This document shows positions 9,001-15,000 of a DNA stretch of 39,647 bases, piece after piece. Made by a program: the position numbers. The DNA lies in the IMG/VR virus record IMGVR_UViG_2718218399_000002; one strand, given 5' to 3'. This DNA comes from a virus. Taxonomy: Duplodnaviria; Heunggongvirae; Uroviricota; Caudoviricetes. The stretch's first letter is position 1, and each line of letters starts with the position of its first letter.

Positions 9001-12000
9001 AGCGGCTGGGGATAAAAATCACAGAACTGGAGTGCGCATGAATAACCACTATTTACAGTTTGTGCGTGAGCTGCTCATTATCGCTACCGCCGATTTGAGT
9101 GGGGCAACAAAAGGTCAGCTTGAAGCCTGGCAGGAGAATGCCATGTTCGATACAGGGCGTTACAGGCGAAAAAAAATCCGGTACCGCGATGAAGTGACTG
9201 GAAAAATGATAACGCGGGATAATCCACCAATCCCGGGAAAGCAATCGCTGGCGAAGGTGACGTCAATTCCTCTGGTCAGTCCGGTTGAGTTTTCGACATC
9301 ATCGTGGCGGCGGGCTGTTCTGTCTCTTGAAGAACATCATAAAGCCTGGTTGTTGTGGTGTTACAGCGGGAGTATTTGTTGGGAATATCAGATCGCGATA
9401 ACACAGTGGGCGTGGAATGAATTTAATACTCAATCCGGTACCAGAAAAATTGCAGGGAAAACGCAGGAACGCCTGAAAAAATTAATCTGGCTGGCGGCGC
9501 AGGCAGTAAAAGCAGAACTTTTTGGTGGGGAAGGTTATGAATACAAGGAGCTGGCATTACTGGTGGGAGTGACAACTAAAAACTGGTCCAAAACATTTAC
9601 TCGTCACTGGGTTGCAATGAAACACATTTTTCACCGACTGGATAGTGAGGCTTTATTGTTTGTAATGAGAACGCGTTCAAAACAAAAGGCGGCATTTTCA
9701 AAGCAAAGTGTTGCAAAAGTAGATTGAAAGGCATATATTTCATGCAAATCTGATATTTTGCCGATTTTGTACGTGATGGCAAAAGCAAACAAAACCCGCC
9801 CACAAGCGGGTTTTTTTGTGCCACTTATCTCGGATAGACATGGTGAATGCGCTGGTGGAGGAAGCAAGGGTAATTTTTAACCAGGTGATTCTTGAATGCT
9901 TGCAACATTGATTTCGTAACGTTATTATCCTGCGCCCGGCCCTTTAGCTCAGTGGTGAGAGCGAGCGACTCATAATCGCCAGGCCGCTGGTTCAAATCCA
10001 GCAAGGGCCACCATCACATACCGCCATTAGCTCATCGGGATAGAACGCCAGCCTTCGAAGCTGGTTTCGCGGGGTTCGAGTCTCCGATGGCGGTCCATTA
10101 TCGGTATTCTGCGTTTTTAGCTCAGCCGGACAGAGCAATTGCCTTCTAAGCAATCGGTCACTGGTTCGAACCCAGTACAACGCACCACACTTATTTTCCC
10201 TCGCTCGCTTTTGCGGACCTTTTTTGTATCCGCACCACGCCCGGCGCATACCAACCACAGAGCCTTTCGGGGGGAGCTTATGGAGTGGTCAGTGTGACTT
10301 TCTCTGTGGGCAGATCGCTCCCGGGCGTTGGCTCACCCACCCAAAGGAACGTCACGATGTTTGGTATTTTTGGTAAAAAAAGCCCGCAGAGCGGCAACGG
10401 AAATTAAAAAGTTTGAAAAACGCGATCTGGCACAGGTGGTGATTAACGCCGCATACCTGGTGGCCTGTGCAGATGGTGAATGTGAGGCATCCGAGAAAGC
10501 GAAGATCGAACAGGTACTGCGTAATCAGCCTGCGCTGTACGCGTTTACGTCAGAAATTAATGCGATTAGCGCAACCATTATCGGTCAGCTGGATACGAAC
10601 TTTAAAACTGGTCGTCGTGCGGCGTTACGTGAGATCGAGGATGTGAAACACGATACGCGTGAAGCGGAAGATGTGCTGGATGTGGCGGTGGCCATTGCGG
10701 AGGCAGACGGCGAAATTGAGCCGGAAGAGCGCAAGGTGCTGGAAGAGATTGCCGGTGTTCTGGGTCTTCGTCTGGAGAATTACCTGTGACGGTAAAACTG
10801 CGCCTGACTGTGGCTGCACTCCTGCTGTTTCTGGTGGTGATGGTGGATTTCACCAGCAGAATCATGTCGGTGCTGGCGGATGGGGTGCTGGTCTGCGGCA
10901 TTATGGTATTGCTGTGGCCGGTGATAAAAAGAAACAGCCTGCATAATGCTTGATTTTTTTGTTTGCTGTTTATTAAAAACACTTCTGCATGGTGAATCCC
11001 CCTGTGCGGTGGGGCAATCAGCAAGAAGGAATATGGGGTAATCGCGGATTCAGGTGCTGATACTGAATTCACCGGGAGGCACCCGGCACCATGCTTTGCC
11101 ACAAAAGTGTTATTTCTGTTTTTCTCAAACTATCATCGTTATCCCTTTATTTTCGGCTGCGCATGGCGCGGCCTTTTTTTACGACCAGCCACTGGCAGAT
11201 GGTCATCCTGTGATTTGATTCCGCTTCCGGCTTTTTAACTCTGTTCCTCTACACGGGAGAAATTCGATGTCGATTAAACATTATGATGTTGTCAGGGCGG
11301 CGTCGCCGTCAGACCTTGCGGAAAAGCTGACACACAAACTGAAAGAGGGCTGGCAGCCATACGGCGGACCGGTTGCCATTACGCCGTACACACTGATGCA
11401 GGCGGTGGCTATTGAAGGAGAGCCACAGGTCGGCCCTTCATCTGAGCCGGATTGGTACTACGTCATCGTACTGGCCGGGCAGTCCAATGCCATGGCTTAC
11501 GGTGAAGGGCTTCCGCTGCCGGATTCATACGATGCTCCGGATCCGCGCATTAAACAGCTGGCGCGCCGCAGTACAGTGACGCCGGGCGGGGCTGCCTGCA
11601 GATATAACGATATTATTCCGGCTGACCACTGTCTGCATGATGTGCAGGATATGAGTACGCTGAATCATCCGAGGGCTGACCTGAGCAAAGGGCAGTACGG
11701 CTGTGTCGGCCAGGGTTTACATATTGCCAAAAAACTGCTCCCGTATATCCCGAATAACGCGGGATCCTGCTGGTACCATGCTGTCGTGGTGGTTCGGCAT
11801 TTACCCAGGGCGCGGAGGGACATTCAGCGAGTCCACGGGGGCCAGTCAGGATTCGGCACGCTGGGGGTGGGCAAGCCGTTATATCAGGATCTGATTTCCC
11901 GCACAAAAGCGGCATTGCAGAAAAATCCCAAAAACGTTCTGCTGGCCGTCTGCTGGATGCAGGGTGAGTTTGACATGAGCGCCGCCACCCACGCACAGCA

Positions 12001-15000
12001 ACCTGCGCTGTTTACAGCCATGCTGACACAGTTTCGTGCTGACCTCTCCGTGTTTAACGCGCAGTGCCATGGTGGCAGCGCTGCAGATGTGCCGTGGATT
12101 TGTGGTGACACGACGTATTACTGGAAAAATACATACGCTACCCAGTACGACACCGTGTACGGCGGGTATAAAAACAGGGAGAGTGAGGGCGTTTATTTTG
12201 TGCCCTTCATGACAGACGGTAACGGCGTCAATACCGCCACTAACGCGCCGGCAGAAGATCCGGATATTCCGGCATCAGGATATTACGGTGCGGCATCGAG
12301 AACGAATGGAAACCAGGTATCATCAAACCGCCCGACACATTTCAGTTCATGGGCGCGCAGGAGCATTATTCCGGATCGTCTGGCAACCGCTATTCTGAAC
12401 GCAGCCGGGCGCACCTCAGCCTTCATCAGTGGTAAGGCACCGGAAATCAAACCCTCGCCCGGCGGCAACACGCCATCGGGTCCGTCTGCAGATACGTCCG
12501 TTCGCACAATCTCCCTGCTGCCGGCAGCCGGAGAGGCTGCTGCGCAGGGCTGGAGCATTAAGGATGGCGGAATTCAGTTGTCAGATGGTGTATTTAAGAT
12601 CACCAGGCAGAGCAATAAAACCTGGTCCCTGACGCATCCGGTGGATGACGCAATTACCCTGCTGACACAGGGCGGCAGACTGACCTGTAAGTTCCGCCTG
12701 TCAGGCGCACTGACCAACAATCAGTTCGGGCTGGGGATTTATCTGTATACGGATGCTCCCGTTCCTGATGGTGTGGCGATGACGGGTACCGGTAATCCGT
12801 TCCTGATGTCGTACTTCACTCAGACCACTGACGGCAGGGTGAATCTGATGCATCACAGGAAAGCCGGAAACACGAAGCTGGGGGAGTTCGGCGATTACGG
12901 TAACGACTGGCAGACGCTGGAGCTGGTGTTCACCGCCGGCAGTGCCATGGTTACTCCGAAACTGAATGGAGTGGCTGGCCCGGCATTCCAGGTTATAAAA
13001 GACAGTCTGACACTGGGACTGAATGCGCTGACGCTGACGGATGTTACAAAAAATGCAGCGTATGGCGTTGAGATAGAAAGTCTGATGCTGGAGATAAATG
13101 CACCGGCAGCATAATAAAAAAACAGCCAGTACTGACTTTCGTCGGAGAAGTACTGAACCGCCCCGGGTTTCCTGGAGAGTGTTTTATCTGTGAACTCAGG
13201 CTGCCAGATCATCGTTTCCGATGGAAGCATAATAAGCTTTTTCTGCTTCTGCCGGAGGAGTATGGCCCAGCCTTCCCAGCAATCGTCGATTGTTATACCA
13301 GTCCACCCACGTTAGTGTGGCCAGTTCCACTTCTGCACGGTTTTTCCAGCTCTTACGGTGTATTACCTCCGCTTTGTAAAGACCATTGATGCTCTCAGCC
13401 ATCGCGTTGTCATACGAGTCGCCTGTACTCCCTGTTGATGCCAGTAATCCGGCTTCTTTTAGTCGCTCCGTATAGGCCAGTGACACATACTGAGAGCCTT
13501 TATCGCTGTGATGGATGGTGCCAGACGGACGACGGGCCCACAACGCCTGCTCCAGCGCATCCAGCACGAATGTCGTTTCCATAGACGATGAGACCCGCCA
13601 CCCCACGATGTATCCGGCAAACACATCAATGATAAACGCCACATAGACGAAGCCCTGCCATGTGCTGACGTAAGTAAAATCAGCCACCCACAGCTGGTCA
13701 GGTCGTTCTGCCACGAACTGACGGTTTACGCGGTCGCCTGCGGCAACGGCTTTCCGGCTGATGGTCGTACGGACCTTTTTACCCCGGAGAACACCGGCAA
13801 GTCCCATAACCGCCATGAGACGTGCCACTGTACATCTGGCCACCCTGATTCCTTCCCGTAACAACTGACGCCAGACTTTACGCACACCGTACACCTGATG
13901 ATTTTCATCGTATACGCGCTGTATCTCTCTCTTCAGCCAGTCGTCGTGCTGCGCACGGGCACTGCGTTTATCCGGATGATGTCGCTGTTGCTGACAATGG
14001 TAATACGTTGACGGGGCAATATGCAGTTCGCTGCATACCGGTCCGACCCCGTACTGCTCACGCAGCTTATCCAGCAGTGGCATCATTTTTTCCAGAGGCG
14101 GTCGAACTCCGCCTTCGCAAAATAAGCGGAAGCCTGGCGAAGGATATCGTTACTGCGGCGCAGTTCACGATTTTCACGTTCCAGCTCTTTCAGACGCTGA
14201 CGTTCAGCGCTGGTGAGCCCACCATCACCGCCCCCGGTATCCCGCTCATGCTGGCGAACCCAGACACGCAGAGTCTCCGGCGTACAGCCAATCTTTGGGG
14301 CAATGGAACAAATTGCCGCCCACTGTGAGTCATATTCATCCTGACTTTCCAGAACCATACGAATCGCCCGCTGACGGACTTCGGGGGAAAAACGAGTATT
14401 TTTAGTCATCCTGTTTACCTCTTTCTCAGGGAGTTTAGTCTCCAGGATTTCCGGGGCGGTTCATACTGGCTAAGAAGGATAGTTGGGTTTCACATGATAC
14501 TTATATCTGGCAGTACATTTTCTGACAGACAGTGATGGGTGTTGTCAAGATATTGTGTCATTTATAACCTGAATCAGGGGGGGGAGCCGGAATGTTATCT
14601 GGCATTTTTAGCAGAGCCTGAATGCCATAATCACGGCTCCCGGCGTTGGCCGTCAGTGGGCGACACTGGCGGCTTTTTGTTTTCCTTTACTTTCATTTTC
14701 TGTCGGCGGTGACGGAGACATACATCAGATGGAAAAAATCACAACAGGTGTGTCATACACCACGTCAGCGGTGGGGACGGGATACTGGTTACTGCAGCTG
14801 CTGGACAAAGTCTCTCCGTCCCAGTGGGTGGCAATCGGTGTGCTGGGGAGTCTGCTGTTTGGCCTGCTGACGTATCTGACTAACCTGTATTTCAAAATCA
14901 GAGAGGACCGTCGTAAGGCGGCGCGGGGGGAGTAAAGCGATGAAGAAAAAATACGAACTGGGTGTTAAAGGGATAAATAATTACCCGGATAAGATTACTG

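Follow-up and report, generated by a model that had tools for sequence, protein, structure and literature searches.

What has taken the place of the toxin genes in a late region that resembles those of Shiga toxin (Stx) phages but has no toxin, and is the gene now found there intact, switched off, or under the control of a switch? The question is raised by IMG/VR virus record IMGVR_UViG_2718218399_000002, a stretch of 39,647 nucleotides referred to here as the window, in which a prediction from the sequence alone had placed a TerB-like gene and a small hydrophobic open reading frame (ORF) between three tRNA genes and a NanS-p-like esterase gene. We identify the two genes as members of the tciA-tciB family named in phage P1, occupying the position of stx2A-stx2B in phage 933W, and we find that tciA is here carried as a frameshifted allele that has become fixed in its lineage. 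The features are collected in Table 1.

The layout on which the original prediction was built, with Q, pR', tR', three tRNAs and a NanS-p-like esterase, is present in full with small coordinate corrections, and its likeness to Stx phages is borne out by direct comparison with 933W. Positions 9900–10236 of the window are 90.6% identical to 933W over a block that spans pT, ileZ-argN-argO and approximately 50 nt beyond; homology then restarts at 10969–11015 and 11065–11094, and again with nanS-p from 11254. Between these homologous flanks 933W carries stx2A-stx2B and the window carries a 732-bp cassette (10237–10968). No stx toxin ORFs are present among the ORFs of the region, as had been claimed for the segment following the tRNAs. 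The slot is therefore arranged as in the stx2AB loci of 933W and Sp5, with pT and ileZ-argN-argO upstream and an STnc100-type small RNA (sRNA) and nanS-p downstream, but it differs in having tciAB and no toxin as its cargo, in having a Q allele and a pR' region unrelated to those of 933W, and in belonging to a defective prophage. It also differs in that no antisense sRNA of the AsxR/AgvB type was detected; such convergent anti-sRNAs are expected at a moron site, and none gave an Rfam match even at E up to 1.

Sequences downstream of pR' are known to tolerate moron insertions, with sRNA genes lying between the moron coding sequence and the next phage ORF (Tree et al. 2014, PMC4104026). In the window the cargo is non-homologous to that of 933W and is flanked by 933W-homologous positions on the Q/pR'/tR'/tRNA side and on the nanS-p side, and STnc100, a presumed Hfq-binding sRNA, lies between the moron coding sequence and the downstream ORF. 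We identify the slot as this published pR' moron site. Among 132 phage records with a TciA relative, none of the 10 organism groups named is 'Stx...-converting' (3 records fall in unlisted groups), whereas at least 218 'Stx...-converting' records match the nanS-p backbone, and tciAB and stx therefore act as alternative cargo for a single slot. The locus had been put forward as the likeliest place for uncharacterised late-expressed cargo. It is already known in the sense that it is annotated, that its genes belong to the named P1 tciA/tciB family, and that the site is published; what stands of the claim is that the literature searched holds no functional test of the cargo.

The larger product of the cassette, TciA, matches the Pfam TerB family (PF05099) with 45.7 bits (gathering cutoff 24.4; E 9.5e-12) and PHROG 632 'tellurite resistance' with E 2.1e-68, and it aligns with the solved Klebsiella TerB structure 2JXU_A (E 4e-7) over query residues 15–137 and chain residues 21–144. 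An AlphaFold (AF2) model built on 35 homologues is all-helical and TerB-like, with a mean predicted local distance difference test (pLDDT) score of 83. Two acidic ADG...E motifs, ACADGECEASE and AEADGEIEPEE, are proposed metal-binding sites; in the 35 homologues D116, G117 and E123 of the second motif are invariant and D38 and G39 of the first are nearly so. The hidden Markov model search and the structure prediction thus both support the proposed TerB-like domain, and we assign TciA, on sequence and model, as a soluble all-helical TerB-family protein. The original prediction would have fallen had no TerB-like fold been predicted or had the gene been absent or scrambled in relatives; the latter does not hold for the family, in which tciA is conserved under purifying selection, with a ratio of nonsynonymous to synonymous polymorphism (pN/pS) of 0.07 across 27 distinct alleles. 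In a full scan of 1.84 billion cluster representatives, 456 relatives passed a limit of E 1e-3 and 103 passed one of E 1e-10. TciA shares its domain family, fold, approximate size and both ADG...E motifs with the TerB of the Klebsiella ter operon, terZABCDE(F), but unlike that protein it stands alone without terC, terD, terE, terZ or terA, none of which is annotated in the 44-kb EDL933 prophage region, and it is phage-borne and paired with a 55-aa membrane protein.

That membrane protein, TciB, corresponds to the hydrophobic ORF of about 55 codons predicted to overlap the stop of the TerB-like gene, and it belongs to the DUF3927 family. Its GTG start shares bases with the tciA stop in the sequence GTGA (10786–10789), and it has its own Shine-Dalgarno (SD) sequence, GGAG, at 10774–10777, 8 nt upstream. 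Hydropathy indicates two hydrophobic segments separated by a conserved DFTSR turn, with K/R residues at both ends, and by the positive-inside rule both termini are predicted to be cytoplasmic. TciB matches the TciB proteins of P1, P7 and SJ46. The names tciA and tciB date from the 2004 description of phage P1 and are also used in the stx-negative O55:H7 phage JLK-2012. In P1 tRNA genes flank the run tciA-tciB-tciC, which belongs to the C1-controlled ban operon and whose role was assigned only 'by homology'. The window shares with P1 (and with JLK-2012, 434, P7 and SJ46) a TerB gene followed directly by a DUF3927 gene, and with P1 a position next to phage tRNA genes; the window and P1 TciA proteins are 40.6% identical over 143 aa (tblastn, E 5e-21). 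Unlike P1, however, the window has no tciC, and STnc100 follows tciB instead; its pair lies in a presumably Q-dependent late operon and not in a C1-controlled early operon; and its tciA copy is without its ATG start. A 31-codon ORF that overlaps the tciB stop (10946–11041) was considered as a tciC and rejected: it does not resemble P1 TciC (MGFWDFADKHPIVLVVIAGIVVGGIAGVIEALRKQ), alleles differ in it or have it truncated, and its variation is like that of non-coding sequence.

Adjacent tciA and tciB genes are found in P1, P7, SJ46 and other P1-like elements, in lambdoid phages including JLK-2012, in Klebsiella phages, in Pollock, FSL SP-058 and FSL SP-076, which are virulent N4-like phages, and in Erwinia jumbo phages such as ChrisDB, where they lie within a tRNA cluster. 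Among 80 IMG/VR loci the Q genes and tRNA sets differ, yet the block behind them (tciA leader, tciA, tciB, STnc100 and on to nanS-p) is conserved. tciA-tciB is a conserved and mobile pair, shared by temperate and strictly virulent phages.

Some further observations concern the pair itself. It lies beside or inside tRNA clusters in four settings, namely lambdoid phages with two different tRNA sets (the window and JLK-2012), P1, and jumbo phage ChrisDB (Table 1). Pseudomonas phage AF has an unannotated 73-codon ORF encoding a hydrophobic helix (1632–1853 of the locus examined), with a GTGA overlap with the TerB stop, and this is possibly an unrecognised TciB analogue. One tciB variant, P0159, has a duplication of three residues (VVM) in the first helix. 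Two apparent TerB-DUF3927 'fusion' proteins, P0011 and P0064, were considered as proxies for a TciA-TciB complex and set aside, as their junctions consist of out-of-frame sequence and in the mixed alignment the TciB N-termini did not line up correctly.

We then consider how tciA of the window is started. In the other 63 tciA copies of the loci compared, the ATG is in frame with the gene; in these alleles it encodes MFGIF(G/K)KK..., a motif kept as far as Pantoea, Erwinia phages and more distant homologues, and the N-terminal form MFGxFKKK is kept throughout the family. Relatives have a run of six A's (A6) or an interrupted run (AAAAAGAAAA) at the position where the window has seven (A7). The window copy has no intact frame leading from this conserved ATG, which opens a short out-of-frame ORF instead. 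The frame break that had been noted is thus real, in that one A fewer opens the long frame, although the run lies at 10375–10381, one base to the right of the 10374–10380 originally given. It is a one-base insertion, A6 to A7, that put the ancestral ATG out of frame. The gene is left with a weak start as its only way in, a TTG at 10361, 4 nt past the ATG, and this is the start that RefSeq uses (further in-frame TTGs are at 10328 and 10370); the proposition that the gene is genuinely off therefore holds in part only: the conserved ATG is out of frame, but the TTG gives an intact 142-aa protein in RefSeq. This TTG is part of ATGTTTGG, and because that sequence is present in every allele the TTG is not an adaptation. 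From the SD sequence AAGGAA the distance is 7 nt to the ATG and 11 nt to the TTG. Since an ATG at optimal SD spacing would draw ribosomes into the 16-codon dead-end ORF, we infer that TciA output from the A7 allele is much reduced.

Two features of the surrounding sequence are relevant here. The leader preceding the ATG is specific to the cassette and is 93–100% conserved in nearly all of 80 related loci, and its RNA (10188–10400) folds no more stably than shuffled sequences (z -0.35), and we propose neither an attenuator nor a frameshift stimulator in the leader. In two other tciA alleles, P0034 and P0042, the first 17 residues or so are out-of-frame sequence (MESSKRKPAERLRKL...) and the frame is regained at a second A-rich run; because these alleles have also changed frame there, the 5' end of tciA is a general indel hotspot.

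The distribution of the A7 allele was determined with exact 95-mer queries against 5,426 complete E. coli genomes. The exact A7 95-mer was the best match in 548 of the 773 records, and the exact A6 counterpart was found in 3; the A7 records include O157:H7, O111:H8, O111:H11, and some non-O157 strains from pigs and humans. At the protein level, the exact TTG-start TciA is encoded on at least 1000 contigs and the exact ATG-start counterpart on 2. EDL933 and at least 24 further complete genomes, of which nearly all are O157:H7, match positions 10200–11270 of the window at 100% identity. The possibility that A7 is a sequencing or assembly artefact is ruled out by the identity to re-sequenced EDL933, to other genomes and to the 548 records. 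On the strength of the two counts (548 against 3 records, and at least 1000 against 2 contigs), A7 is a fixed allele and not a phase-variable one.

A second lesion is found on the same background. In 15 of the 17 IMG/VR A7 copies, codon 46 of tciA is changed from GAG to TAG (position 10493) together with a linked synonymous change of GCA to GCT (10489), and the A7+TAG 95-mer is exact in 127 complete genomes; in strain 116, with an identical prophage context, RefSeq annotates tciA (1412–1840 of the locus examined) as a pseudogene with an 'internal stop'. The version without TAG that is present in the window and EDL933 is exact in 206 records, and the start-codon lesion is the only one in the window copy. 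The same TAG was also seen on two A6 allele backgrounds (loci L012 and L013), and its presence on both A6 and A7 backgrounds suggests gene conversion between prophage copies. Since 127 genomes carry the nonsense mutation, tciA is dispensable in this prophage lineage. EDL933 has four tciA-like places, and the other copies may cover its function. The frameshifted tciA is probably degenerative and on its way out.

Two other explanations of the A7 tract have to be set against decay. The original prediction had allowed that the gene might be slippage-controlled, and A7 could indeed be a programmed or phase-variable switch that activates tciA in some of the cells or transcripts, whether RNA polymerase slips during transcription, the ribosome slips by +1 on A AAA AAA, or mutation goes back and forth between A6 and A7. 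The tract lies 18 nt past a strong ATG and SD, one A fewer restores the conserved N-terminus, and the frame changes of P0034 and P0042 at neighbouring A-rich runs show the region to be prone to indels. This proposition does not survive the census, however, in which A7 so far outnumbers A6 among both records and proteins, nor the occurrence in 127 genomes of a second lesion, the TAG at codon 46, that is not reversible; no stimulatory structure is indicated by the fold of the leader. Seven A's are also short for efficient slippage by RNA polymerase, and the rare or stop codon that normally follows the run at efficient +1 frameshift sites is lacking. We consider a switch very improbable. It is harder to dismiss the explanation that the TTG-initiated TciA (MVFLVKK...) is fully functional and that A7 is a neutral or favoured low-expression variant and not a sign of decay. 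RefSeq treats the gene as an intact coding sequence, only the first 6–7 residues differ and these are still hydrophobic and then KK, the window copy has no other lesion, and A7 is spread over the several serotypes listed above and over different prophage backbones. Against this, an ATG at ideal SD spacing should win over an overlapping TTG, the TTG is there by chance in all alleles as part of the shared motif, the nonsense mutation in 127 genomes marks the gene as dispensable in this prophage, and the spread can be explained by clonal sampling of O157 together with prophage recombination. We therefore regard a fully functional TTG-initiated protein as doubtful, though a realistic contender, and prefer decay of tciA as the explanation.

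The right border of the cargo slot, directly after tciB, is formed by an STnc100-family sRNA that the original prediction had missed. It is homologous to sequence downstream of stx2B in 933W, and STnc100 is known to lie directly downstream of stx2B in Stx2 phages (PMC12370729, PMC12711010). The fold of the region has z -1.2, so that it is the Rfam covariance model, and not folding energy, that carries the assignment. In the RNA-seq and Ribo-seq data of Neuhaus et al. (PMC5331693), an EDL933 copy designated 'STnc100_9' is located 4.1 kb from 'sok_14' and has 1177 reads per kilobase per million mapped reads (RPKM) with low ribosome coverage. Because the 4.1-kb spacing equals that between STnc100 and sok in the window, we infer that 'STnc100_9' is the window copy. 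Several other STnc100 copies of EDL933 have high ribosome coverage in the same study (PMC5331693).

How might the cassette be expressed, and what might the pair do? A scan of the cassette gave no promoter match in the tciA leader. Q antitermination probably lets transcription from pR' run on into the cassette, as it does for stx2, and in the lysogen a low level of transcription may also reach it from pT. In the A7 allele tciB, with its own SD, and STnc100 would both remain expressible. With an intact tciA, TciB probably anchors TciA to the inner membrane on its cytoplasmic side or acts there as its partner, and the two proteins may shield infected cells and lysogens from attacks on the membrane, for example by superinfecting phage, by pore-forming colicins or by the pores of abortive infection. 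A membrane-proximal accessory role in both lytic and lysogenic growth is suggested by the pairing of TerB with TciB, by their translational overlap, and by the presence of the pair in virulent phages. The ter operons confer phage-inhibition (Phi) and pore-forming-colicin-resistance (PacB) phenotypes. These ter-operon phenotypes are summarised in PMC9603915, and the defence systems Shango, Bunzi and Dionysus have TerB components with a proposed role in membrane surveillance (bioRxiv 10.1101/2025.09.30.679545). As with Shango SngA, Bunzi BnzA and Dionysus DinB, the TerB-like domain of TciA is found beside a membrane protein; unlike those systems, tciAB is without helicase, ATPase or pore-forming partner genes and is encoded by phages, including virulent ones. 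By analogy we favour protection of the inner membrane or exclusion of competitors. Taken as a whole, a reading in which the moron slot carries tciAB with a down-tuned tciA and a membrane-associated role seems to us reasonably probable.

Several points weigh against it. TTG starts work in E. coli, so that functional TciA may still be made, and RefSeq keeps the window copy as an intact gene on that basis; the A7 lineage is too uniform for a test of selection within it; Vibrio phage K481 has a TerB without an evident TciB; and the membrane-protection role rests wholly on analogy. Searches with the PADLOC defence models gave at best a marginal match for TciA (PDC-S48, E 0.006) and none for TciB, and no expression data were found for tciA or tciB. 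P1 tciA, tciB and tciC are non-essential by CRISPR interference (PMC10695390), but this is silent on an accessory role. Literature searches found no functional test of phage TerB/TciA or TciB, and no paper linking nanS-p and TerB.

An alternative function for the pair is counter-defence, with TciA acting as a decoy, a free TerB mimic that is held at the membrane by TciB and poisons host TerB systems, such as the O157 ter island and systems of the Shango, Bunzi and Dionysus types. O157 strains have ter islands with a phage-inhibition phenotype, the pair is present in strictly virulent N4-like and jumbo phages for which lysogenic conversion is irrelevant, and validated defence systems include TerB domains among their parts (bioRxiv 10.1101/2025.09.30.679545). 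The identity of TciA to the ter-operon TerB 2JXU is modest, however (E 4e-7), the module is also frequent among prophages whose hosts were not searched for TerB defence, and the proposal is inseparable from the protective model by sequence alone. We hold counter-defence to be unlikely, though a live alternative. That the cassette gives the lysogen resistance to tellurite, as family membership and the database name 'tellurite resistance' would imply, is scarcely credible: there is no other ter gene in the prophage, terB alone is held to be insufficient, as has been stated for phage terB genes (PMC8421299, PMC3728262), and the P1 name 'tci' was given by homology only. A bolder form of the membrane proposal can also be framed, in which tciAB is a widespread phage module at the inner membrane that excludes phages and colicins or disarms host TerB defences and competes with stx for the slot, and in which A7 with its ATG decoy is a selected low-expression setting; we think this quite unlikely. 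The reading we favour is still that of a moron-borne tciAB with a membrane-associated role and a tciA that is down-tuned in this lineage.

The remainder of the late region conforms to the layout described above. The candidate pR' lies, with respect to Q, where pR' is annotated in 933W and would function as the late promoter. The tR'-like hairpin, which the terminator scan gave on the minus strand, would stop a short pR' transcript unless Q acts. The intervening transcript region (9743–9816, plus strand) gave sub-threshold Rfam matches to the Salmonella prophage sRNAs isrK and isrJ (E 0.03–0.08), which were not used; it is the positional counterpart of a terminated late leader RNA of the lambda 6S / StxS type. 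The site in 933W that matches the pT-like promoter is annotated there as 'pT; putative tRNA promoter'. The nanS-p gene is a backbone gene downstream of the cargo slot. Relative to re-sequenced EDL933 (CP008957) the window copy has three 1-nt deletions in G runs, at approximately 11760, 11816 and 11862 (GGGG to GGG twice, and GGGGGG to GGGGG), which are specific to the window; about 100 nt are out of frame before the frame is restored, giving 615 aa in the window and 616 aa in re-sequenced EDL933. Unlike the A7 tract, these deletions are most likely errors of the window's source assembly.

Alignment of positions 6200–15267 with re-sequenced EDL933 (NZ_CP008957.1, 2787137–2796207, reverse strand) gave 0 mismatches and three one-base gaps. 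In the RefSeq annotation the surrounding 44 kb form a lambdoid prophage with zinT/yodB on one side and an exonuclease/dicB early region on the other, and the far prophage end carries espJ and an EspF-repeat (tccP-like) gene. From espJ, the tccP-like gene and the zinT/yodB flank we take this to be prophage CP-933U of E. coli O157:H7 EDL933 (Sp14 in Sakai). In the same annotation the major capsid gene is truncated and gpJ is frameshifted, and because of these lesions, and of the IS1203/IS629 element in the late operon, the prophage is defective. A sok antisense RNA lies at 6848–7022 (plus strand; Rfam, 114.9 bits), with hokD annotated beside it in EDL933; sok/hokD is a type I toxin-antitoxin system in the nin region, upstream of Q.

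Table 1. Features of the tciAB moron slot and its surroundings. Positions are those of the window unless another locus is named.
Feature	Position	Strand	Basis and remarks
Late antiterminator Q	9038–9727	+	Pfam PF06323 Phage_antiter_Q, E 4e-91; RefSeq WP_001059369.1 'bacteriophage antitermination protein Q'
Candidate late promoter pR' (TTGCAA-17-TATATT)	9711–9739	+	Consensus scan; overlaps end of Q
tR'-like intrinsic terminator (CCCGC/GCGGG stem + T7)	9791–9820	+	Sequence; putative role
pT-like tRNA promoter (TTGCAA-17-TATTAT)	9900–9928	+	Scan; start of block homologous to 933W
tRNA CAU, Ile2/ileZ-type	9938–10013	+	ARAGORN, Rfam; RefSeq tRNA-Ile
tRNA Arg(UCG)	10021–10097	+	ARAGORN, Rfam; RefSeq tRNA-Arg
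tRNA Arg(UCU)	10111–10187	+	ARAGORN, Rfam; RefSeq tRNA-Arg
Cassette-specific tciA leader	10237–10356	+	933W homology stops at 10236; SD AAGGAA at 10344–10349
Ancestral tciA ATG with 16-codon out-of-frame ORF	10357–10407	+	Translation: MFGIFGKKSPQSGNGN and stop
tciA, TerB family, annotated from TTG	10361–10789	+	142 aa; RefSeq WP_001303558.1
tciB, DUF3927 small membrane protein, 55 aa	10786–10953	+	Pfam PF13064, E 1.7e-16; PHROG 1470 'TciB-like', E 1.8e-29; RefSeq WP_000216649.1
STnc100-family small RNA	10958–11130	+	Rfam RF02076, 100.8 bits (cutoff 47)
Intrinsic-terminator-like hairpin + T7	11155–11180	+	Scan and sequence, GGCTGCGCATGGCGCGGCC TTTTTTT; after STnc100
nanS-p-type sialate O-acetylesterase gene	11267–13114	+	Pfam DUF1737 + SASA + DUF6645; RefSeq 'SASA family carbohydrate esterase'
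IS1203/IS629 (IS3-family)	about 13190–14410	minus	Between nanS-p and holin gene; breaks up late operon
ALIL pseudoknot of IS1203/IS629	14012–14128		
tciA-tciB + tRNA stretch, window	9938–10953		
tciA-tciB + tRNA stretch, P1	849–2509 of locus		
tciA-tciB + tRNA stretch, ChrisDB	586–2820 of locus		
tciA-tciB + tRNA stretch, JLK-2012	2754–3748 of locus		

These results correct the reading of the locus, which is a published moron site with cargo of a named family, and in which the A7 tract is a fixed allele rather than an assembly error or a switch. As the pair is present in many unrelated phages, occupies the Stx toxin slot, and carries a TerB domain of the kind recently found in anti-phage systems, intact tciAB would be an inexpensive candidate for assays of exclusion, colicins and counter-defence, for which the natural A7 and A7+TAG alleles of O157 would provide ready-made loss-of-function comparisons.

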